Shown here in pieces: positions 7,815 through 58,522 of a DNA stretch of 64,000 bases. Each line of letters begins with the position of its first letter. Within the stretch, counting starts at the first letter, position 1. The translations under genes and the position numbers were made by a program. The notes below the pieces were generated by a model. That model did not search any database and was not told the DNA's origin. It saw only the letters and a list, made by a program, of their open reading frames with translations. This stretch comes from Escherichia phage warpig, in sequence record MN850637.1. One strand, written 5' to 3'.

Positions 7815-8558
7815 ATGAGTAATATTATCGCATTTACTGGAAAGGCACGTTCTGGAAAAGACACCTCATGTTCTATTGTGAAGAACATCTTAGAGGATGA
7901 GTATGGCTACAATGTTGCTGTAATGGCCTTTGCAGACAACCTTAAACTATCTGCATCAAAGATATTTGACTTGACTTGGAATGACCTGTGCGGTGAAACT
8001 AAAGAGACTCCACAGGTTTTTGACTTATCATACTCTGAACTGATGTTTAAAGTTACGGAAGCTATGGAGTTCACCTTCAGAGATGAACGTTACCATATGG
8101 ACTTCAAGCTTATGTCAGAGTTAACCGGACGATTAATCATGGAGCTTAAGAAGGTTGCTAAACCGACTCTATTGACACGTCTGGGGTTTAGTAAAAAGTA
8201 TAAATTCTCATCAAGACAAATTCAACAGATTTGGGGTACTGAAGTTGTCCGTAAAGTAATGGGCGACAAGTTCTGGTCTAAAGACCTTGAAAAAAGAATG
8301 GTTAGATTCCATGAAATGTGCTCACTTAGAAACCAATATGGTTTTGTCTTAATCAGTGATTTAAGATTTGACTCTGAAGCTGAATGGCTGAGTAGATTTG
8401 CACACCAAACTATTGAAGTAAAAAGAGACAATGTGGACAAAGTTTCATCACATGTTTCAGAAAATGGGATTTCTACAAAATATGAGCGTGACATTATTCA
8501 TAATAATGGTACTCTTGCAGACCTTGAGAACAAGCTAAGAGCCATCATTAAAGTTTAA
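7815..8558 (+). CDS. deoxynucleoside monophosphate kinase
   Basis: N-terminal P-loop AFTGKARSGKDT closely resembles T4 gp1 dNMP kinase N-terminus as I recall it. Confidence 0.65.
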   Translation: MSNIIAFTGKARSGKDTSCSIVKNILEDEYGYNVAVMAFADNLKLSASKIFDLTWNDLCGETKETPQVFDLSYSELMFKVTEAMEFTFRDERYHMDFKLMSELTGRLIMELKKVAKPTLLTRLGFSKKYKFSSRQIQQIWGTEVVRKVMGDKFWSKDLEKRMVRFHEMCSLRNQYGFVLISDLRFDSEAEWLSRFAHQTIEVKRDNVDKVSSHVSENGISTKYERDIIHNNGTLADLENKLRAIIKV

Positions 8559-17893: not shown

Positions 17894-18963
17894 TTAACCA
17901 GCACCCAATCTTTTTAGGTGGTGAGAGAAAAACTTTTGACTCACTCAATAAGCACTACCCAAAAATCTTTGAACTTTATAAACAACAAAAAGCACAAGAC
18001 TGGTCAGAAGATGAGTTCCCTTTTGAACAATCACGTCTTGATTTTGAGAGTGTCCCAGCATCAATGTCAGGTGTAATGCTTGAGATTCTTAAGTGGCAAT
18101 GGGAAGCAGACACTCAAGTTGCTAAGAGCTTGGCATTTGCCTTTGCACCTTTTATCTCTGATGACATTTATGCAACTGCAATTATGAAGCAGTCTGAGAT
18201 TGAAAACCTACATGCTCTTACTTACTCAGAGATTGTAAGACAATGTATTAAAAACCCTGAAACAATCTTAGATGAGATTAACCAGAATGTTGCTGTGCAA
18301 GACCGATTAAAAACTGTGAATCGTGTTCTTGAAGAATTACTGGATGAAGGTATAAACTATCGTCTGAGTTATGTGCGTGACTCACTTCTGGACAAAGACC
18401 CTTTACACTTCCATAAAGTGATTCTGAAAGGTCTATTTGCAGTGACTGCACTGGAAGGTATATCTTTTATGGCATCCTTTGCATGTACTTTTGCACTTGA
18501 TGCTCAAGATAAATTTCAGGGTATTGCTCAAGCTGTGCAGAAGATTATGCTTGATGAAATCCTTCACACTAAAATTGATATTGAAGTTTTAAAAGAAACT
18601 TTAAGAGATGATGAGTGGCAGAAAGCTTTTCAACAAATTCTTCCAGAGATTAAAGTAATCTTAGATGAAGTAGTTGAAAGTGAAGAGAAATGGTCGTATT
18701 ATATCTTCTCCGAAGGACGTGCTGTAGTTGGCTTAAATACAAAGCTTCTTCATGAGTGGGTTTACTATAATGCTGCCCCACTGTATGATATGTTTGGCAT
18801 TCCCAGAGATTTTGTAGCTCCTAAAGAACCACCTTTGAAGTACATGATTAAGAAGATGGAAATTGATAAAGAGCAGAATGCTAATCAGGAGCAACAGAAC
18901 GGTGCGTACCTGTTGAATACTGTTGTAGATGATTTGAATAGTGGATTTTTAGAGGTTCCTTAA
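17890..18963 (+). CDS. nrdB: ribonucleotide reductase class I beta subunit
   Basis: About 357 aa after internal start with RBS AAAGGAG; ferritin-like R2 segments (EGISFMASFACTFAL); immediately downstream of nrdA. Confidence 0.85.
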   Translation: MINQHPIFLGGERKTFDSLNKHYPKIFELYKQQKAQDWSEDEFPFEQSRLDFESVPASMSGVMLEILKWQWEADTQVAKSLAFAFAPFISDDIYATAIMKQSEIENLHALTYSEIVRQCIKNPETILDEINQNVAVQDRLKTVNRVLEELLDEGINYRLSYVRDSLLDKDPLHFHKVILKGLFAVTALEGISFMASFACTFALDAQDKFQGIAQAVQKIMLDEILHTKIDIEVLKETLRDDEWQKAFQQILPEIKVILDEVVESEEKWSYYIFSEGRAVVGLNTKLLHEWVYYNAAPLYDMFGIPRDFVAPKEPPLKYMIKKMEIDKEQNANQEQQNGAYLLNTVVDDLNSGFLEVP

Positions 18964-23450: not shown

Positions 23451-23459
23451 GGTAACTAG

Positions 23460-23945: not shown

Positions 23946-24070
23946 GTCTCGTCGTAAAGTAGGTTATCGGTAAAGGCCACTTTACAATGTTCTACAGAAC
24001 AAACTTAACCGTTTGGTGTCACTGAAGAAGAACTTAAAACCTTTTGTGAAAAGATTGAGAGAGACATGAA

Positions 24071-24328: not shown

Positions 24329-24330
24329 TC

Positions 24331-24651: not shown

Positions 24652-24664
24652 ACAGATACTATAG

Positions 24665-24694
24665 GGGAACTGTAAAGGTTCCCTTTTTATTTTG
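24665..24694 (+). terminator. rho-independent terminator
   Basis: GGGGAAC-loop-GTTCCC hairpin followed by TTTTTATTTT. Confidence 0.55.
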
Positions 24695-24702
24695 GAGGTA
24701 AA

Positions 24703-25218
24703 ATGTATCTGTCAAACCTGAAACGTTCGGTTGCAATGTCAGTTCTAAGACTCAGCTTTGATGAGCGTCAAGAGTTTATAGACTCCCACAAATATGACCC
24801 TTCAAATTCTAATCACATGGTTCTTTGGAATCGTGACAACTTCCGTGAAAGAGCACTTGTCCGTTATTACCCACACTACACAATAGATAACCTGTATGAA
24901 TGGTGTGTTGTGAAGAACACCATTGCAACACTGAACAATCTTTGCAGGTATACAGGTAAGCAAACATTTACACTAGGCCACCACAAACCTGTTACAAAAG
25001 GTGGTGAACATCACTGTGCGAACTGGTTTATCCAAACTAAAGCTGATAACCAGAAGCAAGGAGATAGCCTCCTAAGTATCCCTAAGATGACCTATGAAGA
25101 GCAAGAGAAATATATCAAAAATAATATGCCAGATGTGCTTGACAACAACTATACAGATTTGGCAATATCTCTCCTGTTGAAGTTCGAGACAGTTTATAGG
25201 GCAACTTATAATGGCTAA
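24703..25218 (+). CDS. putative HNH endonuclease
   Basis: LGHHKPVTKGGEHHCANWFIQTKADNQKQG fits HNH HH...N...N pattern. Confidence 0.45.
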   Translation: MYLSNLKRSVAMSVLRLSFDERQEFIDSHKYDPSNSNHMVLWNRDNFRERALVRYYPHYTIDNLYEWCVVKNTIATLNNLCRYTGKQTFTLGHHKPVTKGGEHHCANWFIQTKADNQKQGDSLLSIPKMTYEEQEKYIKNNMPDVLDNNYTDLAISLLLKFETVYRATYNG

Positions 25219-25489
25219 AGAAAAGTGGGGGATTTTACCATTAGTCAGTGAAGGAGGTAATGGTTGTGAGATGTACATGATACGTGGTCATGTTCCAGAA
25301 CCAATTGCACTTGAGATGGTAAACAACTTTACAGATGGTTCTTACAAAGACTTAGGAGAGCCAACTATAAAGCAGCAATGGGTAAAGCCTGTCCCAGACA
25401 GCACAGGTAACTGTAGTGTACTTTACCACGTTGTAGACCCTGTAAAATGCAAATCTGCAATGGCAGTAACAAACGTAACTTTTGATTGA
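25211..25489 (+). CDS. hypothetical protein
   Basis: 92-aa ORF. Confidence 0.35.
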   Translation: MAKEKWGILPLVSEGGNGCEMYMIRGHVPEPIALEMVNNFTDGSYKDLGEPTIKQQWVKPVPDSTGNCSVLYHVVDPVKCKSAMAVTNVTFD

Positions 25490-25500
25490 GAGAGAAAACT

Positions 25501-26382
25501 ATGAAAACATCTATCCGTGTCACAATTCATTCACCGACTAAAGGAACTCATGAAGAAGAGTTTAACATCATCCAATTCCCTTCTGGTGAGATTGGTGGCC
25601 ACTTTTCACAAGAGCTTGTTGATTTTACTGCTTATGCAGCATCATCTATTAACAATGTGGTTATGATTGTAAAGGGTTATGACAAAGACACACTGTTTGC
25701 TGTGGCACTGGCTAAAGAAGCAATTGACGATTTAGTTCCTCATGATTATGCCCTGAAGACTGTCATTTTTTACTACTTGCCAAATGCACGATACGACCGT
25801 CACATGTTTAAAGGCGACGCAGCAGCTTTAAAGGTTTTTGCTAAACAGGTAAATGCAATGGGATTTGGTGCAGTCTGTGCAGTTGACCCTCACAGTTATG
25901 TACCAGATAACCTGTTTAACTGCTTCCAAAGTATTCCTCAAAAGGAGATTGCAGTCCACTATGCAAATGACCCTCTAATTGATTACTTAGTAGCCCCAGA
26001 TGCAGGTGCTTCTAAGAAGATTGCAGAGACTGCTAAAGAGGCGGATAAACCATATATCACAATGTCTAAGGTGCGAAATCTTAAGACTGGAGAAATCACT
26101 GGTATGCGAATCCTTGACGATGTTGATTTGACCGATAAAACCGTCATGATTCTTGATGATATCTGTGATGGTGGTCGAACCTTCGTAGAGGCAGCTAAAC
26201 ACCTACGTGAAGCAGGTGCAAAACGTGTTGAGCTTTATGTAACACATGGTATCTTCTCTAAAGGTGTTGAAAACCTTCTTGACAACGGTATCGACCATAT
26301 TTACACTACAAACTCTTTAGGCGAAGCTAAAGACCGTGGCTTAACACATTATGGTCAAGTTACTGTAGCAAACCTTGATTGA
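25501..26382 (+). CDS. ribose-phosphate pyrophosphokinase homologue (Prs-like; candidate NARP1 Adps)
   Basis: About 293 aa; PRPP-binding-type motif VMILDDICDGGRTF; adjacent to NAMPT homologue. Confidence 0.75.
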   Translation: MKTSIRVTIHSPTKGTHEEEFNIIQFPSGEIGGHFSQELVDFTAYAASSINNVVMIVKGYDKDTLFAVALAKEAIDDLVPHDYALKTVIFYYLPNARYDRHMFKGDAAALKVFAKQVNAMGFGAVCAVDPHSYVPDNLFNCFQSIPQKEIAVHYANDPLIDYLVAPDAGASKKIAETAKEADKPYITMSKVRNLKTGEITGMRILDDVDLTDKTVMILDDICDGGRTFVEAAKHLREAGAKRVELYVTHGIFSKGVENLLDNGIDHIYTTNSLGEAKDRGLTHYGQVTVANLD

Positions 26383-26391
26383 AACTTTATA

Positions 26392-26412
26392 GGGGCTTGA
26401 AAGCCCCATTTT
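26392..26412 (+). terminator. hairpin / possible terminator
   Basis: GGGGCT-TGAA-AGCCCC followed by ATTTTG. Confidence 0.4.
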
Positions 26413-26427
26413 GAGAGAGATTAAAAG

Positions 26428-28209
26428 ATGACTAAATCACTTTATGCAGTACCAGCAGGTTTAAACGCAGATGCTTACAAGTCTGGTCATGTTTACCAGT
26501 ATCCTAGTGCAACAGAGTACTTGATGTTCAACCTGACACCACGTAGTGACAAATGGTTTAACAGCCCCTTAGCAATTGATGGTGTAGTGGCTTTTGGTAT
26601 TCAACGTTTCGTTAAAGATTACTTGATAGACCACTGGAACGCCACTTTCTTTGAACGTGATAAAAAAGAAGCAATTGACGAAATCTTAGAAGTCATGAAT
26701 GGTGTTTTGGGTAAAGATGCTATCGGTCGAGAGCATTGGGAAGCACTTCACGACTTAGGCTATCTACCAGTTGAAGTATACGCTGTAGAAGAAGGTACAG
26801 TTGTTCCGATGCGTGTCCCAATGATTGTCTTTCAGAACACTGTTTCAGGTTTCCATTGGGTAGCAGGGTATCTGGAAGATGCTTTCTCTGCTGAGATTTG
26901 GAAGGCTTGTACCATTGCAACTATTGCATTGCACTACAAACGTATCTGTAAGAAGTGGGCTGACCTTACTTGTGACAATGACTTACATTTACCTTACCAG
27001 TGCCATGACTTTGCTATGCGTGGTATGTCAGGCTTTACTGATGACGCATTTAACGCTGTAGGCCACTTAACCAGCTTTAAAGGGACTGATAGCTTCCCTG
27101 CTGTATATACAGCTAAACGCATCTACGGACAGTCTTACCCAGTCTCTGATATTGGTGGTTCTGTACCAGCCACTGAACACTCTGTAATGTGTGCAAACAT
27201 TGCTTGGGAAGGTGGTAATGAATTGATTGAAGAGGAAAGACGCTTTAAAGGTGAATTACAAACCTTCCGTCGCTTCTTAACAGAAACTTACCCAACTGGT
27301 ATTGCAAGTATTGTTTCAGATACTTATAACTTCTGGAGAACTGTGTCAGAAATCTTACCAGCACTTCGTAAAGAGATTATGGAACGTGACGGTAAACTGG
27401 TAATTCGTCCTGACTCTGGAGACCCTGTACATATTGTCACAGGTTATAAAGCAATCCACTTAGAGTGTGCTAAAAAGGCTTATTACGAGCACCTAAGCAA
27501 GCTGGAAGCCAGTGACACAATGCTGAATGCTGTTCTGAACATGAAGCTTGAAAACATCAGCTATGGTATTGCTGGATGGCTACTGTCAGAAGGCTACGAA
27601 ATGGTTGTTGACCGAGAAGACTTTGAAGTTGCTGATACAGTGATGTTGAAAAATACTTATATGGTTGGCTCTGCAAACGTTGTAACACGTCCTGTAGCAG
27701 AGATTGATGGAGCTATTAAGACCCTGTACAACATCTTCGGAGGGACTATTAACTCTAAAGGGTTTAAGGTACTGGATGAGCACATCGGCCTTATCTATGG
27801 TGACTCTATCACACTGGAACGTGCAAACGAAATCCTGAAGCGTCTGTATGAAATGGGTTTTGCAAGCTCTAACGTAGTGTTTGGCGTAGGCTCTTACACT
27901 TACCAGTACATGACTCGTGACACCTTTGCATTTGCTGTTAAAGCAACTCTTGCAAGCATTGGTGGTAAAGAGATTATGCTTGCAAAAGACCCTAAAACAG
28001 ATAGTGGTGTTAAGAAGTCTGCTTTTGGTGGTGTAGCACCTATGTGGGATGGTGATAAGTTGAAAGCTGTAGATGGCTATGGATTCCAGAGCTTTGCAGA
28101 TGCACTTGAACATCCAGCTTGTGCTTTACGTTTAGTCTTTAGTGACTCTGAGCAGTACGGTTACACATCTCTTGGTGATATTCGAAATAATATTGACAAG
28201 CAGCTTTAA
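26428..28209 (+). CDS. nicotinamide phosphoribosyltransferase homologue (NAMPT-like; candidate NARP1 Namat)
   Basis: 593 aa; overall pattern consistent with NAPRTase/NAMPT-family enzyme; gene adjacency with Prs-like. Confidence 0.7.
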   Translation: MTKSLYAVPAGLNADAYKSGHVYQYPSATEYLMFNLTPRSDKWFNSPLAIDGVVAFGIQRFVKDYLIDHWNATFFERDKKEAIDEILEVMNGVLGKDAIGREHWEALHDLGYLPVEVYAVEEGTVVPMRVPMIVFQNTVSGFHWVAGYLEDAFSAEIWKACTIATIALHYKRICKKWADLTCDNDLHLPYQCHDFAMRGMSGFTDDAFNAVGHLTSFKGTDSFPAVYTAKRIYGQSYPVSDIGGSVPATEHSVMCANIAWEGGNELIEEERRFKGELQTFRRFLTETYPTGIASIVSDTYNFWRTVSEILPALRKEIMERDGKLVIRPDSGDPVHIVTGYKAIHLECAKKAYYEHLSKLEASDTMLNAVLNMKLENISYGIAGWLLSEGYEMVVDREDFEVADTVMLKNTYMVGSANVVTRPVAEIDGAIKTLYNIFGGTINSKGFKVLDEHIGLIYGDSITLERANEILKRLYEMGFASSNVVFGVGSYTYQYMTRDTFAFAVKATLASIGGKEIMLAKDPKTDSGVKKSAFGGVAPMWDGDKLKAVDGYGFQSFADALEHPACALRLVFSDSEQYGYTSLGDIRNNIDKQL

Positions 28210-28222
28210 AAGTATATGATAA

Positions 28223-28246
28223 GAGGCTCCTACGGGAGCCTTTTTA
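28223..28246 (+). terminator. rho-independent terminator
   Basis: GGCTCC-TACG-GGAGCC hairpin followed by TTTTT. Confidence 0.55.
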
Positions 28247-28262
28247 ATTTCTGGAGAAGACT

Positions 28263-28598
28263 ATGAAAATCAAAGAAATGAACATCAATATTGTCTTAGA
28301 AGAACGTTGGGAGAACATCAAGAAGCCTGAAGATGGTAAGAAGTTCCTTAACAAAATTTTAGTAGCAGCTAAAGAAGAACTGACTGGCAAGATTGCAGCA
28401 GCAATCACAATAAAAGTCTGTGTAAAAGGTCTTCCAGACAACCACCAATTTGCGCTTGACGAGTTTAAAGAAAGCTTCTACAATCCAAACAAACAGATGC
28501 TTGAAAGTAACTTTGCAGTATCTACAAGTATCGTCCATGACAGAAGCTTTATCCTTTACAAAAATATGAGAGGTGAGTCATGCAAGCATATTGGATAG
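28263..28598 (+). CDS. hypothetical protein
   Basis: 111-aa ORF. Confidence 0.4.
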   Translation: MKIKEMNINIVLEERWENIKKPEDGKKFLNKILVAAKEELTGKIAAAITIKVCVKGLPDNHQFALDEFKESFYNPNKQMLESNFAVSTSIVHDRSFILYKNMRGESCKHIG

Positions 28599-28756
28599 AA
28601 ATTTTACTGTCACTTGGTAGTGTAGCAGTTTTTGTTTACCTTCTTTGCAAGTACTATGCAGAGTACAAGAAGTGTGATTACTGCAACGGGGAAGGGTACA
28701 CAAGAGCAGGTTGTTGCCCTATTTGTGGTGGTTCTGGTAAAATGTTTAATAAGTAA
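28580..28756 (+). CDS. small membrane protein with DnaJ-type zinc finger
   Basis: 58-aa ORF not in track (below 60 aa): N-terminal TM helix then CDYCNGEGY...CPICGGSG repeats. Confidence 0.35.
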   Translation: MQAYWIEILLSLGSVAVFVYLLCKYYAEYKKCDYCNGEGYTRAGCCPICGGSGKMFNK

Positions 28757-28784
28757 TTTAACAGTAAACTAAGAGGAAAGTATT

Positions 28785-31151
28785 ATGCGCATGGTAAACG
28801 ACCACGCAGAAGTGATTAAGAGTTCAACTTCTTTGGAGACATCTCAAGCACAGATTACAATGACACCTGAAATGTTCAGCCTTTTGAGTTCAGGTGTATA
28901 CACATTCAAAGAAAGGGCAGTGATTCGTGAACTGTCATGTAACGCAGTAGATGCTCAAAAAGAAGCTGGAAAAGAGAACATCCCATTCCATGTGCATTTA
29001 CCTACTCGATTTGAGCCTTACTTTGAAGTCCGTGACTTTGGAACTGGTTTAACCCATGACAAAGTAATGAGTTTGTATCTGAACTATGGGGCTTCTACGA
29101 AGAATGACTCCAATGATTACATTGGTGCAATGGGTATCGGCTCAAAATCACCATTTGCAATTGCTCAGTCATTCACAGTATCTAGCTATGTTGATGGTGT
29201 TGTTAATAAGTACTCTGTTTACCTTGAGAATGGTATCCCTCAAGTAACTAAGCTTACTACCAACCCAACAAATGAACCCAATGGTTTAGCTGTACGTGTA
29301 GCAGTTGCTGACCATCGTATTTCAAAGTTCTTTGAAGAGGCTGGTCACGTATACTCATACTTTGCTGTAAAACCAGAAAGTAACATTGTATATGATGATG
29401 TATTAGCAGATATGAATGTCATTGCCCGTGAAGATGGTGTTTATGATGCTATGATTCATAAGCAAAGCTGGCGTTCTAGTGGTAACAGGACAGAGTTTAA
29501 TGTGGTGATGGGTAATATTGCCTATCCAGTGAACATGGAAGCATTACTTGGTGATGATTTCTTCAAAGTCTTGCCAGAGTTTTTCCGTAGGAGCGTAGAC
29601 CTTGTAAACATCTACATGCCTATTGGTTCAGTTGCTATAGCAGCTTCTCGTGAAGCCTTGCAGATGAATGATACGACAAAAAATGTTATCATTGAGGCAA
29701 CTAAAAAGATAACTGAAGCAATTACAAAGGATGTTATCAAGAAAGTTAATAGCCAACCTACACTCATGGATGCTGCACAGGCTTATGCTGAGTTACGTTT
29801 GAACTCACGAGAGATGTTTAATGCTGTGTGTCCAAAGCTAGAGTGGGGAGGCGTTAAGCTTGATTCTCTGGAAGAAGAATTACTAAACATTCGTCGTGGG
29901 ATTATCTACGCAGAAGACGGCTCAGTCATTTATGAACGTGACGGTAAAGGTAATATCAAGGTTGATAGGAACGGGAACAATATCCCTAAAGTGGATTATC
30001 TTTATAATCCAGTTGCTTATGTCAAGTTCAACTCTTTAGAGAGTAAGATTCGTGCAGCAGCACTTTCCTACACTCAAGAGGCAAGTATGTTCAATATCTT
30101 TGGTGCAATGCGTAAAAGCCAAATTGAACAGTTTTTGTTCGTGATTAATGACCGTCGTAATAAAAATGGCACTGAGAAGACTGTAGGCCGCAATCAGATT
30201 CTGCGTGGTGCATGTCGAGACTACGCTAGCGAGTCAAGCCTGTTCCACAGATACAATGGTATTGTGTTTGTATTCTCGACTGAAAAAGAGTTAGATGATT
30301 TAATCAATCTACACAAGCTTGATAAAAGTTTGTTAAAGATTGTGAAGATGTCTGATAAGGAACACCATTATCAGCGTAAAGAAGCTGTGAGGGGTGTTGT
30401 AAAACTCTGGAAAGCTGTTCCATCAGAAACTAAAGCTTCATACACAGAGGTGTCAGAAGACCTAGATACAATTGAAGAACCCCAGCTTTATATCAAGGCA
30501 GTAGGCGACACAGTTGATGGTGAATGTTTTTGCTCATCCCCAGAAGATGTAGCTAAAACAATTGCTAATGTTATAGGAAAAACAGTCTATGTTTTCCGAA
30601 AAGCAAATTGGAAAAAGATACCAGAAGACTGGATTGAAGTAGATGAGAAGCTATTGAATGACAGCTTAACTGATGTTCACTGGATTAATCATAACAGGTA
30701 TATGACACGTATCTATATGAATGGTGTCCTTGACCTTACAAGTAGTTGGATTATTGCCAGAAACTTTACGTTTAATAACAAGAAGATTTCTCGCGGGTAT
30801 TGCTATTCACGAGATACAAACAAAACCATCTTCTTAGAAGGTAATGAGAATGCTGTTGAGGCAATGTTTGGTAAGATTCAGTATGTGGCTGCACCGTTTG
30901 CATACACTTACACTATCAGTGTTCTTCAGGATTTGAAGTCATGCCTTGACAATGATACAAGACTGTACAAAAAGATTAAGAAAGCGGGTGACCGCATGGT
31001 TATCAAACTGACAAACTATCTTTCAAAAAGAAAACAAGAAAACTTCTTGCTTTCTCATTTAGATTGGAATAAAGTGTCACCCATCGAAGTGAGTAAGTTC
31101 TTAGGTTTTGATGTGAAGTGTGTTCCAGAAGGAACTACAATTTACGATTAA
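28785..31151 (+). CDS. rIIA: rIIA protein
   Basis: 788 aa; N-terminal region (FSLLSSGVYTFKERAVIRELSCNAVDAQ, GIGSKSPFAI) matches the T4 rIIA GHKL-ATPase-like N-terminus as I recall it. Confidence 0.85.
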   Translation: MRMVNDHAEVIKSSTSLETSQAQITMTPEMFSLLSSGVYTFKERAVIRELSCNAVDAQKEAGKENIPFHVHLPTRFEPYFEVRDFGTGLTHDKVMSLYLNYGASTKNDSNDYIGAMGIGSKSPFAIAQSFTVSSYVDGVVNKYSVYLENGIPQVTKLTTNPTNEPNGLAVRVAVADHRISKFFEEAGHVYSYFAVKPESNIVYDDVLADMNVIAREDGVYDAMIHKQSWRSSGNRTEFNVVMGNIAYPVNMEALLGDDFFKVLPEFFRRSVDLVNIYMPIGSVAIAASREALQMNDTTKNVIIEATKKITEAITKDVIKKVNSQPTLMDAAQAYAELRLNSREMFNAVCPKLEWGGVKLDSLEEELLNIRRGIIYAEDGSVIYERDGKGNIKVDRNGNNIPKVDYLYNPVAYVKFNSLESKIRAAALSYTQEASMFNIFGAMRKSQIEQFLFVINDRRNKNGTEKTVGRNQILRGACRDYASESSLFHRYNGIVFVFSTEKELDDLINLHKLDKSLLKIVKMSDKEHHYQRKEAVRGVVKLWKAVPSETKASYTEVSEDLDTIEEPQLYIKAVGDTVDGECFCSSPEDVAKTIANVIGKTVYVFRKANWKKIPEDWIEVDEKLLNDSLTDVHWINHNRYMTRIYMNGVLDLTSSWIIARNFTFNNKKISRGYCYSRDTNKTIFLEGNENAVEAMFGKIQYVAAPFAYTYTISVLQDLKSCLDNDTRLYKKIKKAGDRMVIKLTNYLSKRKQENFLLSHLDWNKVSPIEVSKFLGFDVKCVPEGTTIYD

Positions 31152-35690: not shown

Positions 35691-36476
35691 ATGGGTATTG
35701 TAAAAATCATCAATGGGGATATCTTCTCCGCATTTGATAAAGGTAAGTTTGATATTATTGGTCACGGTTGCAACTGTATGAACTTAATGGGTGCAGGTAT
35801 CGCTGACAAGATTTCTAAACTTTACCCAAAAGCATATGAGACCGATACAGAAGTTTATTTGTATGCAGGTGGCATAGGCCACAAACCCTGTGAAAATTTA
35901 CTAGGTAATTTCTCTGTAGCACGTTTAAAACAAGGCCGTATAGCTAACCTTTACACTCAGCTTAAGACTGGTAAAGATGCCCGATACAGTGCTTTAGAGT
36001 CATCTTTGAAACAGCTTAACAGATACTGTGAAGTCAATCAGTTGAAGAAAGTCGGGTTACCTATGATTGGTGCAGGTATCGGTGGGCTAGACGCTCAAGC
36101 CGTCACAGTTATCATTAATCAGGTGATGAAGAGTGTAGATGTGTATCTGTATGTCTATGAAGGAGAGATGTACCACAAGTTACGCTCAGGTTGGAAGAAC
36201 TACTGTGAACCAGAATACTTTGCAGGTGTAGTAACGTTCACAGACAATACAGTTACCCTCTTCAGACGAAGAAAAGGTAAGATACATCAAAGTAACCCTC
36301 CGGTTGAAAAGATGTCTCTAAGTAACGCTCTAGTTACCCACCTGTCGAAGAGCAATCACAGGATTGCAGTAACATTTGGTAGTGATGCAGACACTTATAT
36401 CTATGCAAGAACTGATGAGGGTATCGAGACAGTTTTCTCTTCGCCAGAAGTTACCTTCTTAGACGCAAAGAACTAA
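35691..36476 (+). CDS. macro-domain protein (ADP-ribose binding/processing)
   Basis: IIGHGCNCMNLMGAGIADKI and GLPMIGAGIGGLD resemble macrodomain Gly-rich ADP-ribose-binding loops. Confidence 0.5.
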   Translation: MGIVKIINGDIFSAFDKGKFDIIGHGCNCMNLMGAGIADKISKLYPKAYETDTEVYLYAGGIGHKPCENLLGNFSVARLKQGRIANLYTQLKTGKDARYSALESSLKQLNRYCEVNQLKKVGLPMIGAGIGGLDAQAVTVIINQVMKSVDVYLYVYEGEMYHKLRSGWKNYCEPEYFAGVVTFTDNTVTLFRRRKGKIHQSNPPVEKMSLSNALVTHLSKSNHRIAVTFGSDADTYIYARTDEGIETVFSSPEVTFLDAKN

Positions 36477-53812: not shown

Positions 53813-53889
53813 CTCTGTTTAGCTCAGCTTGGTAGAGCGTTCCGTTTGGGGCGGTAAGGCCGGAGGTTCAAGTCCTCCAACAGAGACCA
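53813..53889 (+). tRNA. tRNA-Pro (anticodon TGG)
   Basis: Hand-folded: acceptor CTCTGTT/AACAGAG, D-arm GCTC...GAGC, loop TTTGGGG, T-arm GGAGG-TTCAAGT-CCTCC, CCA encoded. Confidence 0.7.
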
Positions 53890-53896
53890 AATTAAT

Positions 53897-53974
53897 GTTC
53901 CAGTAGACAAAATGGTAAAGTCACCACTCTTTCAAAGTGGATATTTGAGGGTTCAAATCCCTTCTGGAACGCCA
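53897..53974 (+). tRNA. tRNA-Glu (anticodon TTC)
   Basis: Acceptor GTTCCAG/CTGGAAC, anticodon stem CCACT/AGTGG, loop CTTTCAA, T-loop TTCAAAT, CCA encoded. Confidence 0.7.
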
Positions 53975-54064
53975 GTTTTGACAGAAGACCAATTACAGCA
54001 AACTTAATCTACTCATCTGACACGAAATCGGACAAAGAAGATATTTGGTCTGGTCATTAAGAAT

Positions 54065-54141
54065 TGCGGGTATAGAGAAAGGGCGTCTCACATGTCTCAT
54101 TAGCATGGTATCGGCAGGTTCGACTCCTGCACCCGCCTCCA
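54065..54141 (+). tRNA. tRNA-Met or Ile2 (anticodon CAT)
   Basis: T-arm GCAGG-TTCGACT-CCTGC, acceptor 3' ACCCGCC, anticodon loop CTCATTA; position 37 is T (atypical). Confidence 0.55.
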
Positions 54142-54182
54142 AATTTACAGAAGACCGTTTACAGCAAAACTTAAACAATCTA

Positions 54183-54255
54183 TTTCTCGGTAAAGAAAAG
54201 GCGAAGGTTCGATTCCTTCACTCGGCAGATGTCGAGTTGGTGTAATGGTAGCACT
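54183..54255 (+). ncRNA. tRNA-like locus with permuted half order (3' half then 5' half)
   Basis: Hairpin (54183-54198) + T-arm GAAGG-TTCGATT-CCTTC + acceptor 3' ACTCGGC-A, 3 nt (GAT), then acceptor 5' GTCGAGT + D-arm GTGT-AATGGTA-GCAC; anticodon arm unresolved. Confidence 0.35.
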
Positions 54256-54426
54256 TAAGATGGTAAACAACGGTCTGGTAATTATCTTTGTAGATAAGTT
54301 ATTAAGCTTACCTGTGAGTATGCGACCACAAAGGGTGAAGGGTAAATTCTAGATTTAAACCCAAAAAGGCACATCGCTACAGACCTTAAGCAAGTCTGGG
54401 TAGCTTATCTACAAAGATAATTTAAT

Positions 54427-54502
54427 GGAAGTGTAGCAGAATGGTGATGCGGCAGACTTTTAATCTGACAGGCGATGGGTTCGAATCCCTCCACTTCTAC
54501 CA
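54427..54502 (+). tRNA. tRNA-Lys (anticodon TTT)
   Basis: Acceptor GGAAGTG/CACTTCT, loop CTTTTAA, T-loop TTCGAAT, CCA encoded. Confidence 0.7.
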
Positions 54503-54506
54503 AAAT

Positions 54507-54583
54507 GGTTCAGTCGCAGATAAGGTAATGCAAGGGTCTCATAAGCCCTATGAATGTGGGTTCGATTCCCATCTGAACCTCCA
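54507..54583 (+). tRNA. tRNA-Met or Ile2 (anticodon CAT)
   Basis: Acceptor GGTTCAG/CTGAACC, anticodon stem AGGGT/GCCCT, loop CTCATAA, T-arm GTGGG-TTCGATT-CCCAT. Confidence 0.7.
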
Positions 54584-54585
54584 AT

Positions 54586-54660
54586 TGTGGGTTAGCATAA
54601 ATGGTAATGCAAACGGCTGATAACCGTTAGAAGAGGGTTCGATACCCTCACCTACAACCA
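54586..54660 (+). tRNA. tRNA-Ile (anticodon GAT)
   Basis: Acceptor TGTGGGT/ACCTACA, D-arm GCAT...ATGC, anticodon stem AACGG/CCGTT, loop CTGATAA, T-arm GAGGG-TTCGATA-CCCTC. Confidence 0.8.
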
Positions 54661-54675
54661 ATTTCAATAAAGTTG

Positions 54676-54704
54676 TTGACATTGAGATGTGACCACTTTA
54701 TAGT
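54676..54704 (+). promoter_or_regulatory. sigma70-like promoter inside tRNA cluster
   Basis: TTGACA - 17 bp - TATAGT. Confidence 0.55.
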
Positions 54705-54908
54705 AACCTTAGTTTTCGTTGCGTAGCGTCTATTTTGCAAATTTAAAATAAATGCAAACGACAATGTTTTTCTGGCAGTAGCTTGATAGGCTAAACACCA
54801 GTGAGGTCTTCCAATCCCTCATCAAAGAATTTGGCGTACTCGCCCACGGTATGATTAATAAGGTGGGCATCTTTAAGGGCTTTCTAAGAGAGTCTTTAAA
54901 GATAATTA

Positions 54909-54990
54909 CGGGGCGTATCTCATCTGTCTTCTAAACAGACGTTAACCGAGTAAGTGGAGTATGCGGGTTCGAGTCCTGCCGCCTCGACCA
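54909..54990 (+). tRNA. atypical tRNA-like gene (anticodon loop TCTAAAC, long extra arm, minimal D region)
   Basis: Acceptor CGGGGCG/CGCCTCG with A73-CCA, T-arm GCGGG-TTCGAGT-CCTGC, hairpin TGTCT-TCTAAAC-AGACG; only about 7 nt where a D-arm should be. Confidence 0.4.
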
Positions 54991-55004
54991 ATTTTGGAGA
55001 AATC

Positions 55005-55352
55005 ATGAAAACTTGTATTAGGTGCAAACTTAGCAAGGATGAAAATGATTTCTACATGAAAGATGGTAGGAGAACTCATTCATACTGTAAAAAGTGTGTT
55101 AATGAGCAAACCATAGAAAGACAAAGAGCACTTAAACTCTCAGCTATTGAGTACAAAGGTGGGGTTTGTCATGATTGTGGTAAGAAATATCATCCAGCAG
55201 TGTATGACTTCCATCATTTGAATCCTTCAGATAAAGATTTTAACATTGGTCATAGGAAAAGCCTTAAGTTCTCTCAAGAACTAAAAGATGAACTTGACAA
55301 ATGTGTTTTGCTATGTTCAAATTGCCATAGGGTAAGACATGCAAAGTATTAG
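55005..55352 (+). CDS. HNH endonuclease
   Basis: 116 aa from ATG with RBS GGAGAAATC; CxxC...YDFHHLNPSDKDFNIG...LLCSNCHR HNH motif; embedded in tRNA cluster. Confidence 0.7.
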   Translation: MKTCIRCKLSKDENDFYMKDGRRTHSYCKKCVNEQTIERQRALKLSAIEYKGGVCHDCGKKYHPAVYDFHHLNPSDKDFNIGHRKSLKFSQELKDELDKCVLLCSNCHRVRHAKY

Positions 55353-55489
55353 TTAGCAGATTACTTAGACGACCTAAGCGGGTCTTCCTGTAGGGAGGTG
55401 GTCTGTATCTCATGTTTTCCAGAACATGTAAATAATCTGAGAAGGGGCTTTACAGTGTTGAGATAATACGGTAAGCTTCGAATTATAGT

Positions 55490-55572
55490 GTGGGACGATG
55501 TTAAGACTCTAAGGCATGAGCAACGGCTTCCAACACCGTTTCAAAGGGGTTCAACTCCTCCGTCCCATGCCA
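55490..55572 (+). tRNA. tRNA, possibly Trp (anticodon CCA), atypical D region
   Basis: T-arm AGGGG-TTCAACT-CCTCC, acceptor GTGGGAC/GTCCCAT, G73-CCA; anticodon stem AACGG/CCGTT with TTCCAAC loop; about 6 extra nt in D region. Confidence 0.4.
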
Positions 55573-55585
55573 AAGTCTTATTAGG

Positions 55586-55673
55586 GGTAGGTAGCGGCTA
55601 ATGGTAGCCAAACAGTCTTGAAAACTGTTGCCACTGTAGAGATACGGTGAGGGTTCGACTCCTTTACTTACCG
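55586..55673 (+). tRNA. tRNA-Ser (anticodon TGA), type II
   Basis: Acceptor GGTAGGT/ACTTACC, anticodon stem ACAGT/ACTGT, loop CTTGAAA, long variable arm, T-loop TTCGACT. Confidence 0.7.
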
Positions 55674-55829
55674 CCTAATAAGATTTAAAGCCAAGCTTCA
55701 TTCGGATGTCGCTTTGGTATCCCTCGTGTATTGTCGTACACACTGATAAAACACCTAGTAGGTGTCACGGAGAAGAGATAATATCAAGCTCTCCAAAGGT
55801 TCTAGTCACCGGATTAAACAAGACTATGC

Positions 55830-55851
55830 AAAGACCTTTTTAGGTCTTTTT
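55830..55851 (+). terminator. rho-independent terminator
   Basis: AAAGACC-TTTTTA-GGTCTTT followed by TT. Confidence 0.5.
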
Positions 55852-55930
55852 AGAGGGCTTCTAAGGTTATTACAGCTTGTTGTGGAACCTTGTTGCTTAG
55901 GTTCTTAGAAGTTCTCTAAAAAGATTTAAT

Positions 55931-56008
55931 GGGAGATTGACGGTAATTGGTAAACCTACCATCCTTAGAAGTTGGTGTTTGAGGGTTCGAATCCCTTGTC
56001 TCCTACCA
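55931..56008 (+). tRNA. tRNA with Leu anticodon TAG, short variable arm
   Basis: Acceptor GGGAGAT/GTCTCCT, A73-CCA, D-loop AATTGGTAAA (Leu-like), loop CTTAGAA, 5-nt variable loop, T-loop TTCGAAT. Confidence 0.5.
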
Positions 56009-56015
56009 AATTAAT

Positions 56016-56091
56016 GCAGGTGTAGCAAAATGGTTATGCGGCTGACTCTTAATCAGTAAGACGATGGGTTCAATTCCCTCCACCTGTACCA
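56016..56091 (+). tRNA. tRNA-Lys (anticodon CTT)
   Basis: Acceptor GCAGGTG/CACCTGT, anticodon stem GCTGA/TCAGT, loop CTCTTAA, T-loop TTCAATT. Confidence 0.7.
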
Positions 56092-56097
56092 GACATT

Positions 56098-56173
56098 GGG
56101 GTCATAGTTTATATGGTTAAAATTCGAGTTTTGCAAACTTGGGAACTGAGTTCAATTCTCAGTGACTCCACCA
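56098..56173 (+). tRNA. tRNA-Ala (anticodon TGC)
   Basis: Acceptor GGGGTCA/TGACTCC with G3-T70 wobble (Ala identity pair), loop TTTGCAA, T-arm CTGAG-TTCAATT-CTCAG. Confidence 0.75.
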
Positions 56174-56179
56174 ATTAGT

Positions 56180-56254
56180 GCATCCATAGTTTAAACGGGA
56201 AAATTACAGTCTTCCAAACTGAGGTTGAGGGTTCGATTCCCTCTGGATGCTCCA
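56180..56254 (+). tRNA. tRNA-Gly (anticodon TCC)
   Basis: Acceptor GCATCCA/TGGATGC, loop CTTCCAA, T-loop TTCGATT. Confidence 0.75.
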
Positions 56255-56261
56255 AATTAAT

Positions 56262-56337
56262 GCTCCTATCGTATAATAGGCTATTACGGTTGCCTTGTAA
56301 GCAACTTATCAGGGTTCGAATCCTTGTGGGAGCACCA
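56262..56337 (+). tRNA. tRNA-Thr (anticodon TGT)
   Basis: Acceptor GCTCCTA/TGGGAGC, anticodon stem GTTGC/GCAAC, loop CTTGTAA, T-loop TTCGAAT. Confidence 0.8.
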
Positions 56338-56443
56338 ATTCAGAGGTCAAGTGAAAGACCGCTGGTGTCAACTGAAGACCGTAACAAATTCCACGGAGTT
56401 GAGTTAGCGGCACAACTTCAGACCTCTTTCACACTCGCTTAGT

Positions 56444-56518
56444 TTATATGGTAAAACACCACCCTTACAAGATGAAGAAAAAGGTTCAAGTCCTTTAGTG
56501 AGTACCATGTTCCAGTAT
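56444..56518 (+). tRNA. tRNA, possibly Val (anticodon TAC), weak anticodon stem
   Basis: Acceptor ACTCGCT/AGTGAGT, D-arm GTTT...AAAC, T-arm AAAGG-TTCAAGT-CCTTT, CCA; anticodon arm has two mismatches. Confidence 0.4.
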
Positions 56519-56519
56519 C

Positions 56520-56597
56520 CCAATTGGCAGAGGATGCAAGCTCAAACCTTGTATTAGTGACGGTTCGAATCCGTCTTGGAACACCAATTTTAAGAGG
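56520..56597 (+). tRNA. tRNA with Leu anticodon CAA, short variable arm
   Basis: Acceptor GTTCCAG/TTGGAAC, A73-CCA, D-arm TCC-CAATTGGCAGA-GGA (Leu-like D-loop), anticodon stem GCAAG/CTTGT, loop CTCAAAC, 6-nt variable loop. Confidence 0.5.
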
Positions 56598-56605
56598 CTA
56601 TTTAG

Positions 56606-57163
56606 ATGAGATATTTGAAGTATGCTTCATGGATTTTCCTAGCTTTACTAGAGCCATTTGCAGCAACCCTAGCAGTCATCTTAGCACCTTTCGTAGTTCC
56701 ATTCTACAGTGAGAAGAAAGGACACCTACCTTTTGGATTCAGATGGATGGAGACCTATGACAACCCAATTGATGGTGATGAAGGTCACGTTAAAAGATGG
56801 GCTAAGATTAGAAAGATTGGTAAGCTGGGTGTCTACATGCAGAGAGTTGGATGGCTCTGGAGAAACAAAGCTTATAACTTCTCTTACCATGTATTAGGAA
56901 GAGATGTAAAAGATGTTACTAAGTGGAAAGGCAATATCAACGTAAGTTCTGACCCTGAAGATAATCAGACTGGTTATCTCCTAATGTGGAATAGCAATGC
57001 TTGGGGATTATTCGCTTTTATCCCATCAATTAAAGTCTTTGGTAAACAGTTTTACTGGAGAATTTATATTGGATGGAAACTAAAAAGCGTTGTCCCAGAA
57101 GAAAGAGCATTCTCAAGGGAAAGAGTTATGTTGGCATTCTTTATTCATCCACTGAGAAAGTAA
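56606..57163 (+). CDS. membrane protein inside tRNA cluster
   Basis: 185-aa ORF with N-terminal hydrophobic helices. Confidence 0.45.
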   Translation: MRYLKYASWIFLALLEPFAATLAVILAPFVVPFYSEKKGHLPFGFRWMETYDNPIDGDEGHVKRWAKIRKIGKLGVYMQRVGWLWRNKAYNFSYHVLGRDVKDVTKWKGNINVSSDPEDNQTGYLLMWNSNAWGLFAFIPSIKVFGKQFYWRIYIGWKLKSVVPEERAFSRERVMLAFFIHPLRK

Positions 57164-57171
57164 AGATTTAA

Positions 57172-57247
57172 AGGGGATTAGTTTACAAGGTTAAAACCTC
57201 GGTCTTTGAAATCGAAGAAGTTGGTTCAATTCCAACATCCCCCGCCA
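57172..57247 (+). tRNA. tRNA-Gln (anticodon TTG)
   Basis: D-arm GTTT...AAAC, anticodon stem TCGGT/ATCGA, loop CTTTGAA, T-arm GTTGG-TTCAATT-CCAAC, G73-CCA. Confidence 0.7.
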
Positions 57248-57249
57248 AT

Positions 57250-57328
57250 GCTCCATTACTCCAATTGGCAGAGAGGCCAGACTTAAAATCTGTGTTATGT
57301 ATCGGTTCGAATCCGATATGGAGTACCA
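57250..57328 (+). tRNA. tRNA with Leu anticodon TAA, short variable arm
   Basis: Acceptor GCTCCAT/ATGGAGT, A73-CCA, D-arm CTC-CAATTGGCA-GAG (same as 56520 tRNA), loop CTTAAAA, 7-nt variable loop, T-arm ATCGG-TTCGAAT-CCGAT. Confidence 0.5.
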
Positions 57329-57333
57329 AATTT

Positions 57334-57409
57334 AGCGGTATAGCATAACTGGCAATGCAACAGTCTCTGAAACTGTCCTATTAAGGTTCAAATCCTTATG
57401 CCGCTGCCA
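57334..57409 (+). tRNA. tRNA-Gln (anticodon CTG)
   Basis: Acceptor AGCGGTA/TGCCGCT, D-arm GCAT...ATGC, anticodon stem ACAGT/ACTGT, loop CTCTGAA, G73-CCA. Confidence 0.75.
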
Positions 57410-57440
57410 CTTCTAAGGGTTCTTACGAGAGTCCTTAAAT

Positions 57441-57516
57441 GTGGCCTTATCATAAATGGTAATGACCCATGCTGTGAACATGGTCTATACGGGTTCAAAT
57501 CCCGTAGGTCACCCCA
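57441..57516 (+). tRNA. tRNA-His (anticodon GTG)
   Basis: Acceptor GTGGCCT/AGGTCAC, anticodon stem CCATG/CATGG, loop CTGTGAA, T-arm ACGGG-TTCAAAT-CCCGT. Confidence 0.75.
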
Positions 57517-57521
57517 ATTTA

Positions 57522-57597
57522 TAGTCCAAGTAGCTTATATGGTGAAGCGCGTGTCTGAAAAACATGAGAAGAGGGTTCAAATCCCACTGGACTACCA
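57522..57597 (+). tRNA. tRNA-Phe (anticodon GAA)
   Basis: Acceptor TAGTCCA/TGGACTA, anticodon stem CGTGT/ACATG, loop CTGAAAA, T-loop TTCAAAT; 3' end register ambiguous. Confidence 0.6.
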
Positions 57598-57613
57598 ATT
57601 TCAAAGGTGCTTA

Positions 57614-58348
57614 ATGAAAGAGATGACAGAACAAGGTAAGGAGATTTTTAATCTCTTAAAAACCGGTAAAGGGTTTTCTAACCCACTTATTACTGGTGCA
57701 GCAGTTCTCGGTGGAACCGTAGCTGCCTCTACATCACTTGTAAGCTCTATTAGCTCTGTAACAGACCCTACAATGAAGGAGAAGCTTGTTGCTGCTGGAC
57801 TTACAACAGTCCTTCTAAACAGCTTTACAACAAGCCTGACAAGCACTACAGCAACCACTAAGACCCTAACAGACTATGGTCAAAAGTCTATTGATGAGTT
57901 TTCATCACGTATGCAGGTAGCAAAGGGATATTCCAATGTTATGGGTGCAGCAGGAGAACAAGTTGGTTGTACACCATTCAGTGGTATTATGGGTGTTGCT
58001 ACAGAGTATGGTCAAAAAGCTATTGACATGATTAACAGCACACTAGACAGTGTTAACGGTGTGTTAAGTGACTTACAAGACGCTATTGATAAGGGTCTTG
58101 ATACTGTTTCTGATTTAGCTAATCAGGCTGTTAGTAAGATTAATGAAGGTATCTCAAAGATTACAGCTTATGCAGATGAAGTTGTGCAGATGATTGAAGA
58201 AGAAGCTGCCCTTATTGCAGAGTACCTTAAAACGAATATCAATGGGTTCTTAGCAGGTATCTTACCAGACTGGTTTGATGATGCTTGTAAAACTGGTGTA
58301 ATCGACACTATTGCAACACCAGAAATGAAGAGCGCATTACAGAAATAA
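57614..58348 (+). CDS. hypothetical Ser/Thr-rich protein inside tRNA cluster
   Basis: 244 aa from internal ATG (track ORF at 57398 reads through three tRNAs). Confidence 0.45.
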   Translation: MKEMTEQGKEIFNLLKTGKGFSNPLITGAAVLGGTVAASTSLVSSISSVTDPTMKEKLVAAGLTTVLLNSFTTSLTSTTATTKTLTDYGQKSIDEFSSRMQVAKGYSNVMGAAGEQVGCTPFSGIMGVATEYGQKAIDMINSTLDSVNGVLSDLQDAIDKGLDTVSDLANQAVSKINEGISKITAYADEVVQMIEEEAALIAEYLKTNINGFLAGILPDWFDDACKTGVIDTIATPEMKSALQK

Positions 58349-58349
58349 T

Positions 58350-58442
58350 GGAAGATTAACCCTAAAAGGTAAGGGAGCAGTTTGCTAAACTGCCAGTAGC
58401 TGAGAAATCGGTGTACCAGTTCAAGTCTGGTATCTTCCTCCA
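58350..58442 (+). tRNA. tRNA-Ser (anticodon GCT), type II
   Basis: Acceptor GGAAGAT/ATCTTCC, anticodon stem GCAGT/ACTGC, loop TTGCTAA, long variable arm, T-arm ACCAG-TTCAAGT-CTGGT, CCA. Confidence 0.75.
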
Positions 58443-58446
58443 ATTT

Positions 58447-58522
58447 GAATCCGTGACAGAAATGGCTATGTGCCTGTCTGCAAAACAGGTTTATAAGGGT
58501 TCAAGTCCCTTCGGATTCTCCA
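58447..58522 (+). tRNA. tRNA-Cys (anticodon GCA)
   Basis: Acceptor GAATCCG/CGGATTC, anticodon stem CCTGT/ACAGG, loop CTGCAAA, T-arm AAGGG-TTCAAGT-CCCTT, CCA. Confidence 0.75.

Follow-up and report, generated by a model that had tools for sequence, protein, structure and literature searches.

The DNA analyzed here is a stretch of 64,000 nucleotides (nt) from Escherichia phage warpig (sequence record MN850637.1), referred to below as the window. It is from a Felixounavirus, a Felix O1-like coliphage, and it carries two adjacent genes whose products resemble ribose-phosphate pyrophosphokinase (Prs) and nicotinamide phosphoribosyltransferase (Nampt or NAMPT). Reading the sequence alone, an initial annotation had proposed that this pair is a NARP1 module rather than a conventional Prs/NadV pair, and our analysis upholds this choice on the basis of orthology to phage Bas63 and of the published signatures of the two enzymes. 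The pair is very probably a NARP1 NAD+ reconstitution operon, comprising an ADP-ribose pyrophosphate synthetase (Adps) and a nicotinamide ADP-ribose transferase (Namat). NARP1 is itself already known; the type example of the operon is found in the sister phage Bas63, and the corresponding genes of phages Alf5, wV8 and KhF1 have been catalogued. The two genes lie on the same strand, separated by a spacer of 45 nt, and the coordinates first given for them are right.

25501..26382, + strand: adps, putative ADP-ribose pyrophosphate synthetase (Prs-like), 293 amino acids (aa)
26428..28209, + strand: namat, putative nicotinamide ADP-ribose transferase (Nampt-like), 593 aa, ATG start

The operon would act when a host NADase (SIR2-HerA, DSR1/2, ThsA of Thoeris, SEFIR or Kongming) splits NAD+ to ADP-ribose and nicotinamide. 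Adps would then use ATP to place a pyrophosphate on the 1'' position of the terminal ribose of ADP-ribose, with ADP-ribose pyrophosphate (ADPR-PP) and AMP as the products. Namat would in turn replace the pyrophosphate of ADPR-PP with nicotinamide, yielding NAD+ directly, with no nicotinamide mononucleotide (NMN) intermediate and no need for host NadR or PncC. We infer the enzyme activities and the anti-defense phenotype of the window alleles from their orthology to the operon of Bas63.

Orthology to the NARP1 operon of Bas63

NARP1 was discovered through the deletion of genes 79-80 (bas63_0079 and bas63_0080) of the BASEL phage Bas63 (JohannRWettstein, MZ501086), which is also a Felixounavirus. 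Bas63 lacking these genes was about 20-fold more sensitive to SIR2-HerA, a defense that the wild type overcame, and the drop in NAD+ was deeper with the deletion mutant than with the wild type. ADPR-PP (m/z 720.010) was seen only with the combination of wild-type Bas63 and the defense system, and the rescue needed neither host pncC nor host nadR (10.1101/2024.02.11.579819, for the discovery and each of these observations). The enzyme activities of NARP1 have been shown for proteins of SpβL1 (Bacillus phage SPbetaL1), ICP1 (a Vibrio phage), DyoEdafos and P. foliorum, and in vivo for Bas63.

The window and Bas63 share gene lengths (882 and 1782 nt, for proteins of 293 and 593 aa), the length of the spacer and the locus, with nrdG and small open reading frames (ORFs) upstream and rIIA downstream. 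Both proteins align without gaps: 229 of the 293 residues of window Adps (78%) are identical to those of Bas63 gp79, and 583 of the 593 residues of window Namat (98%) to those of gp80, including the inserted domain and both clamp elements described below. Window Adps is 100% identical to a protein of phage vB_EcoM_Alf5, whereas window Namat is 99.2% identical to a wV8 protein and near-identical to the Namat proteins of wV8 and KhF1. The supplement of the discovery paper lists the Alf5, wV8 and KhF1 genes as Adps or “Adps-associated” Namat (10.1101/2024.02.11.579819). A megablast search with positions 25000..29000 returned 259 phage records, 211 of which covered at least 80% of the query, with identities of up to 96% at the nucleotide level; almost all were from Felixounavirus-type myoviruses of Escherichia, Salmonella, Shigella or Citrobacter. 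Purifying selection acts on adps and namat, which are real genes and not chance ORFs; relative to Bas63, dN/dS was 0.04 in the case of Namat and 0.05-0.17 in that of Adps.

The likeness to Bas63 is not uniform along adps. Sliding identity reveals a patch that covers the N-terminal half of the gene.

25480..26040, + strand: mosaic patch, N-terminal half of adps

This patch is 66-82% identical to Bas63 at the nucleotide level, whereas most flanking 100-nt intervals are 92-98% identical. In the protein, identity to Bas63 Adps is 67% for aa 1-180 and 96% for aa 181-293, which make up the C-terminal domain. A priori, so divergent a half within a region that is otherwise 95-97% identical might mean that the window allele is inactive or has changed its substrate, in which case the pair would no longer be NARP1. 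We regard this as extremely improbable. Over the divergent half dN/dS is 0.165, with dS near saturation, and all of the mapped binding and catalytic residues are kept, including F26, R97, H131 and D167 from the N-terminal part. Further, two allele classes of Adps are found in phage databases: 154 records are at least 90% identical to the window protein and 94 are 60-80% identical, so that the window carries the commoner allele. Decay was rejected on dN/dS and residue conservation, and because of these same two facts the N-terminal half of window Adps is best understood as a second functional allele moved by recombination.

A different possibility is that the enzymes have the activities described above but that their main role is general NAD+ homeostasis, using ADP-ribose from any source, and not counter-defense. 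The operon does lie in a nucleotide-metabolism region, near nrdAB, nrdDG and rIIAB, and homologous pairs stand on bacterial chromosomes beside the NAD regulator NrtR, bacterial NARP1 being active. However, with Bas63 the formation of ADPR-PP was confined to conditions of active NADase defense and the phenotype of the deletion was seen on a defense-carrying host, and members of the Adps clade come almost exclusively from phages. We consider a mainly homeostatic role to be unlikely, and counter-defense by NARP1 to be the better account.

Signatures that separate Adps and Namat from Prs and NadV

General family models describe both proteins in terms of conventional salvage. The Prs-like protein matches Pribosyltran (7.8e-11) and Pribosyl_synth (1.6e-9) in Pfam, as well as phrog_619, “ribose-phosphate pyrophosphokinase”, in PHROGs (5.8e-97). 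The NAMPT-like protein matches NAPRTase (1.2e-34) and NAMPT_N (2.4e-5), and also phrog_448, “nicotinamide phosphoribosyl transferase” (1e-202). These labels, and those of NCBIfam and GenBank, agree with a pathway in which a true Prs would make phosphoribosyl pyrophosphate (PRPP), NadV/Nampt would convert it to NMN and host NadR or PncC would carry NMN to NAD+. In the same direction, the NAMPT-like protein passes the NadV-type equivalog model PRK09198 of NCBIfam, with a score of 469 compared with a cut-off of 405, and SpβL1 Namat makes NMN from PRPP in vitro. PRK09198 is, however, blind to the difference between Namat and NadV, and it is because NCBIfam cannot tell these enzymes apart that public records name Namat a phosphoribosyltransferase.

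Conventional salvage is nevertheless very unlikely, and we have rejected it on the grounds of Bas63 genetics, SpβL1 enzymology and the content of the window. The Bas63 orthologues function in a host deleted for pncC and nadR, no product could be measured when SpβL1 Adps was given ribose-5-phosphate and ATP as a control, and Namat offered both substrates yields NAD+ only (10.1101/2024.02.11.579819 for all three). The window Namat has an adenine clamp that is absent from canonical Nampt, and the Prs-like protein falls below every Prs equivalog cut-off, by threefold or more. Finally, no phage NMN adenylyltransferase (Nmnat) was found among the scanned ORFs. Pfam was run on 53 window ORFs with lengths of 110 aa or more, in two sets (20 and 33) whose family lists were complete, and on the small flanking ORFs; the outcome bears out the earlier observation that no such enzyme is seen in the window.

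The scores of window Adps with the Prs equivalog models of NCBIfam are 42-103 bits and their cut-offs are 296-536, so that all of these models were failed, whereas the broad subfamily TIGR01251 was barely passed (119 compared with 113). In BLASTP the protein scores 97 bits with SpβL1 Adps and 59 with E. coli Prs. Percent identities are less divergent: with SpβL1 and FADO Adps they are 27-29% over the whole alignment and 31-34% over the portion aligned by BLASTP, as compared with 24-25% and 29%, respectively, with E. coli Prs. The donor (PP) loop of window Adps reads DDICDGGRTF. It is remodeled with respect to the motif of E. coli Prs, DDMIDTGGT, and its core, D219-D-I-C-D-G224, is identical to that of ICP1. 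Because the bit scores favor SpβL1 Adps, the Prs equivalogs failed and the PP loop matches ICP1, we place the protein with Adps, despite its nearly equal raw identity to Prs.

The residues of window Adps were mapped by alignment onto ICP1 and SpβL1 Adps, using the crystal and cryo-EM structures reported for ICP1 Adps (PMC13586617). Those conserved in the window protein are F26, R97, H131, D167, K190, D219, D220, D223 and F228. All but K190 and F228 are counterparts of ADPR-contacting residues in ICP1 Adps, where ADP-ribose fills the groove that in PRPS binds ADP and ribose-5-phosphate, and where the donor ATP is held by the remodeled PP loop and by a β-hairpin that bears the essential Lys185 (PMC13586617). 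The catalytic lysine, K190, corresponds to K162 of SpβL1 and K185 of ICP1. When K162 of SpβL1 Adps is replaced by Ala the Adps-Namat mixture no longer makes NAD+ efficiently (10.1101/2024.02.11.579819), and the K185 Ala substitution in ICP1 Adps abolishes detectable formation of ADPR-PP (PMC13586617). F228 corresponds to ICP1 F221, at a position where E. coli Prs has Leu. The filament/regulatory module that PRPS has at its C-terminus, α11-α12, is missing from the Adps family (PMC13586617); in alignment, window Adps ends about 22 residues before E. coli Prs.

Several points weigh against the NARP1 assignment. Most of the conserved Adps residues are also kept in true Prs, and are therefore necessary but not discriminating for ADPR specificity. 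The phenylalanine of the adenine lid in ICP1, F223, is Glu in window Adps, ICP1 F92 is Met, and the second half of the PP loop reads GGRT in the window and GAAS in ICP1. One in three of the first 180 residues of window Adps is different in Bas63 Adps, which itself “did not purify well” (10.1101/2024.02.11.579819). The biochemistry comes from proteins of SpβL1 and ICP1, whose identity to those of the window is only 28-34% for Adps and 46% for Namat. In addition, Namat keeps a PRPP-to-NMN activity in vitro, so that some conventional salvage might take place (PMC12774641; 10.1101/2024.02.11.579819). We nevertheless retain NARP1 as the preferred reading because of the strong orthology to an experimentally dissected operon and because of the published specificity signatures, of which those of Namat are the following.

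Namat shares its catalytic core with Nampt and derives its specificity for ADPR-PP from a two-part adenine “selectivity clamp” (PMC12774641). Both parts of the clamp, and an inserted domain, may be located in the window.

26548..26574, + strand: selectivity-clamp loop (SCL) of Namat, approximately aa 41-49, DKWFNSPLA, identical to Bas63
27889..27921, + strand: selectivity-clamp helix (SCH) motif of Namat, G488-S-Y-T-Y-Q-Y-M-T-R-D498
27445..27708, + strand: inserted α/β mini-domain of Namat, approximately aa 340-427, high-confidence model

The SCL is a variable loop that gives a further adenine-stacking residue, either an Arg at position 3 or the residue after a Lys or Tyr, and Bas63 Namat is cited as an example of the Lys-plus-next-residue type (PMC12774641). 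In window Namat this loop reads S40-D-K42-W43, with K42-W43 as the predicted adenine-stacking pair. Y490 and Y494 of the SCH occupy the adenine-stacking positions of the motif as defined in PMC12774641, and Φ3 is Met, Asn or Val being more usual there. The SCH aromatics are lacking in canonical enzymes, such as HdNadV of Haemophilus ducreyi (GAQTYQRNTRD) and the Nampt of Xanthomonas (Xcc; GGALLQKVDRD). Inspection of the 120 best database homologues of window Namat revealed a Namat-type clamp motif in every one of them, and the residues of the catalytic core (D15, Y17, F195, R198, D221, H251, R327 and D329) show no variation among 57 homologues.

Window Namat is 46-49% identical to the SpβL1 and FADO proteins, and its AlphaFold2 model has a pLDDT of 93.9 and a pTM of 0.91. 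A Foldseek search with this model placed the crystal structures of SpβL1 Namat, 9W5W and 9W5X, first (TM 0.95), ahead of HdNadV and mammalian NAMPT. A sequence search of the PDB gave the same order, with 9W5W/9W5X at the top.

The NAMPT homologue had been remarked upon as long, and this is correct; its inserted domain is shared with Bas63 Namat and marks no departure from NARP1. Window Namat has 593 residues, compared with 491 in SpβL1 and 498 in FADO, mostly because of this domain, the rest being due to a second insert of 15 aa near aa 258-275. The domain measures 77 aa if taken as the alignment gap in the SpβL1 and FADO proteins, and 88 aa if delimited from the model; it is placed after the RPDSGDP strand and before the helix preceding the GDS loop (G458-D-S). 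R327/D329 and the G458-D-S loop are carried by barrel strands, and because the insertion is at the C-terminal ends of these strands the domain probably sits on the active-site face. Among homologues the length at the insertion site ranges between 11 and 94 aa. Felixounaviruses and related enterobacterial phages have the long form in common, with a conserved core around GYE(M/L)(V/I)VD. No structural relative of the domain was detectable by structure comparison of the model. Bas63 Namat has been presented in a published alignment and as an AF3 model, without the word “insertion” (PMC12774641), and the domain is thus a minor and uncommented trait of a protein that is already known.

Transcription unit, accessory genes and genome context

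The longest adps frame in the ORF listing, 25486..26382, starts with TTG and encodes 298 aa, whereas the internal ATG at 25501 gives 293 aa. This ATG is the likely start, because the purine-rich element GAGAGAGA precedes the ATGs of both adps and namat and because the Bas63 orthologue is annotated as 882 nt. The surroundings of the two genes include the following features.

24663..24685, + strand: terminator-like hairpin with T-run, from a consensus scan and the sequence
24703..25218, + strand: ORF, 171 aa, phrog_3500, weak HNH-like match, orthologue of bas63_0077
25211..25489, + strand: ORF, 92 aa, phrog_4726, orthologue of bas63_0078
26392..26407, + strand: intergenic GC-rich stem-loop GGGGCU-UGAA-AGCCCC, then AUUUUG, in the adps-namat spacer
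28221..28244, + strand: terminator-like hairpin with a 10-bp stem and T-run, 12 nt 3' of the namat stop

The two terminator-like hairpins enclose four genes: the 171-aa ORF, the 92-aa ORF, adps and namat. The first hairpin is likely to be the upstream boundary of the NARP1 transcription unit and the second its 3' end, although two such sites were found compared with 3.7 expected from shuffled sequences, so that these boundaries are suggestive only. The 92-aa ORF overlaps the 171-aa ORF by 8 nt and its stop is 11 nt ahead of the adps start. Both ORFs may be co-transcribed with the NARP1 genes, their position being the sole tie to the pathway. Positions 23400-29000 contain 18 promoter-like sites, compared with 12.4 ± 4.0 in shuffled sequences; this difference is not significant and no promoter was called. 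The 57-nt stretch 26376-26432, which includes the intergenic stem-loop, has a folding energy of -12.9 kcal/mol (z = -3.46 with respect to shuffled sequences). An identical stem-loop is present in Bas63, and it could be an element for processing, RNA stability or attenuation.

Directly 3' of namat, Bas63 has an extra hypothetical gene of 345 nt, bas63_0081, which the window lacks. The site of this indel is at approximately 28245..28262 in the window and 18408..18752 of the compared Bas63 stretch. An indel of about 350 nt after namat recurs in several megablast matches, some other Felixounaviruses carrying the extra gene.

Pfam found no match to NMN adenylyltransferase (CTP_transf_like), NadR, Nudix or PnuC in the scanned window ORFs, nor is an Nmnat annotated in the part of the Bas63 genome that lies beyond the window, which comprises the structural module and thyA/frd. 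Some NARP1 operons do carry accessory genes, either for Adpp, a Macro-domain phosphatase of ADPR-1''-phosphate, or for RyDEP, a RyR-domain glycosidase. The form known as NARP1-AP (Adps-Adpp-Namat, as in Vibrio phage Gary) counters NAD+ phosphorolysis of the RES type (10.64898/2026.01.28.702374). In the four small ORFs that flank the pair Pfam found neither Macro/Adpp nor RyR/RyDEP domains, and the operon is therefore not of the NARP1-AP form. A single Macro-domain gene was found among the scanned ORFs, 7.5 kb downstream of the pair.

35691..36476, + strand: Macro-domain protein, 261 aa, PF01661 (1.5e-7), phrog_335 “phosphatase”, orthologue of bas63_0095

The first 156 or so residues of this protein align end to end with Gary Adpp (27% identity, E 8e-14), it is 24-36% identical to ten Adpp proteins linked to NARP1, and it has all 10 of the invariant Adpp positions (H25, N28, G36, A38, P46, G72, Q90, P124, G127 and G132). 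Unlike Adpp, it lacks the near-invariant Trp of the GGDW motif and has a C-terminal extension of about 100 aa. Among solved structures it is closest to TARG1/OARD1, with a weaker match to Poa1p. Phages that lack NARP1, for instance T4, have homologues of it too, and the published NARP1-AP table includes no Felix-type phages (10.64898/2026.01.28.702374). The supplement of the paper on RES-type NAD+ phosphorylases (aRES) gives no mutated Adpp residues. A link by synteny in the Seunavirus EspYZU14 was considered and rejected, the Macro homologue not being beside the NARP1 genes there.

A functional link of the Macro protein to NARP1 is a hypothesis, based on these sequence comparisons. A broader and distinctly speculative proposal, which we think rather doubtful, is that Felixounaviruses run a split NARP1-AP with the unlinked Macro protein as its accessory, and that the orphan domain of Namat is a functional add-on and not a neutral loop expansion. 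If this were so, the Macro protein would convert the ADPR-1''-phosphate produced by aRES to ADP-ribose for use by Adps, and such a split system would escape surveys that are based on operons. The Namat domain might in that case, for example, gate the substrate, interact with Adps or help to evade a host inhibitor.

Elsewhere in the window, read against the annotation of Bas63, are nrdAB, nrdDG, rIIA, rIIB and genes for DNA polymerase, ligase, primase/helicase, terminase and portal, and 21 tRNA genes form an array at 53813..58522 with small ORFs between them, as in Bas63. The tRNA just before tRNA-Cys is tRNA-Arg (AGA) in the Bas63 annotation, and its window counterpart is tRNA-Ser (GCT) according to ARAGORN. 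The ORF at 7815..8558 (+ strand) matches in length the “putative deoxynucleotide monophosphate kinase” of Bas63 (744 nt), and one ORF in the Pfam batch that included it matched DNMK (PF21448, 2.3e-21). Kongming, an NAD+-depleting defense that NARP1 counters, is reported to be triggered by phage dNMP kinases (PMC12774641). The window phage may carry both the Kongming trigger and the remedy for it.

Implications and comparison with known systems

The published picture of NARP1 is unchanged by these data. Possible small additions are the two recombining N-terminal alleles of Adps, the uncommented domain of Namat and the unlinked Adpp-like Macro gene, which might widen the range of defenses that are countered. 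The main value lies in correct annotation, since public records still say “ribose-phosphate pyrophosphokinase” and “nicotinamide/nicotinate phosphoribosyltransferase”, implying PRPP/NMN salvage. The operon predicts that the phage resists the NAD+-depleting defenses SIR2-HerA, DSR1/2, Thoeris, SEFIR and Kongming, a prediction that bears on host range and on the choice of therapeutic phages.

Among systems outside the Felixounaviruses, NARP1 of SpβL1 resembles the window pair in its two-gene order, in its catalytic residues and in providing the best fold match to window Namat. The SCH of SpβL1 Namat, GSFTYQYNTRD, is of the same motif type as GSYTYQYMTRD of the window. The proteins are 46% (Namat) and 28-34% (Adps) identical. 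SpβL1 Namat, with its 491 aa, is without the 77-88 aa and 15-aa insertions of the window protein, its SCL uses Arg40 where window Namat has K42-W43, and the PP loop of SpβL1 Adps reads DDLSSFGGT in place of DDICDGGRT. ICP1 Adps shares with window Adps the DDICDG core, a C-terminus that seems short in alignment and the equivalents of F18, R87, H121, D161, K185, D212, D213, D216 and F221 (ICP1 numbering), whereas overall identity is 32% and the second half of the loop is AAS in place of GRT.

The Nampt fold of window Namat recurs in canonical NadV (HdNadV, 9KE8) and in NARP2, which pairs Nampt with a bifunctional Nmnat, for example in Vibrio phage KVP40. NARP3 is defined by PnuC-like and NadR-like proteins (PMC13464706) and occurs in Bas30; it and NARP2 have the same overall purpose as NARP1, the restoration of NAD+. 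Both were rejected as descriptions of the window system, with no Nmnat domain (NARP2) and no PnuC or NadR domain (NARP3) among the scanned ORFs.

Relatives of the pair are also encountered in bacteria, where Namat homologues of 496 aa with the clamp motif occur on enterobacterial chromosomes. In Klebsiella michiganensis (contig DAHJTQ010000013, 3211..6491) a chromosomal gene for a Prs-like protein of 289 aa is followed by a Namat-like gene (496 aa, GSFTYQYNTRD). The Prs-like protein is 39% identical to window Adps and has the loop DDLCDAGGTF, and the pair adjoins a divergently oriented gene for an NrtR-type regulator (Nudix + WHD_NrtR). The arrangement has the appearance of a NARP1-like pair encoded by the host next to the gene of an NAD regulator, and it fits the published accounts of bacterial NARP1 homologues and of the activity of bacterial NARP1 (PMC12774641).

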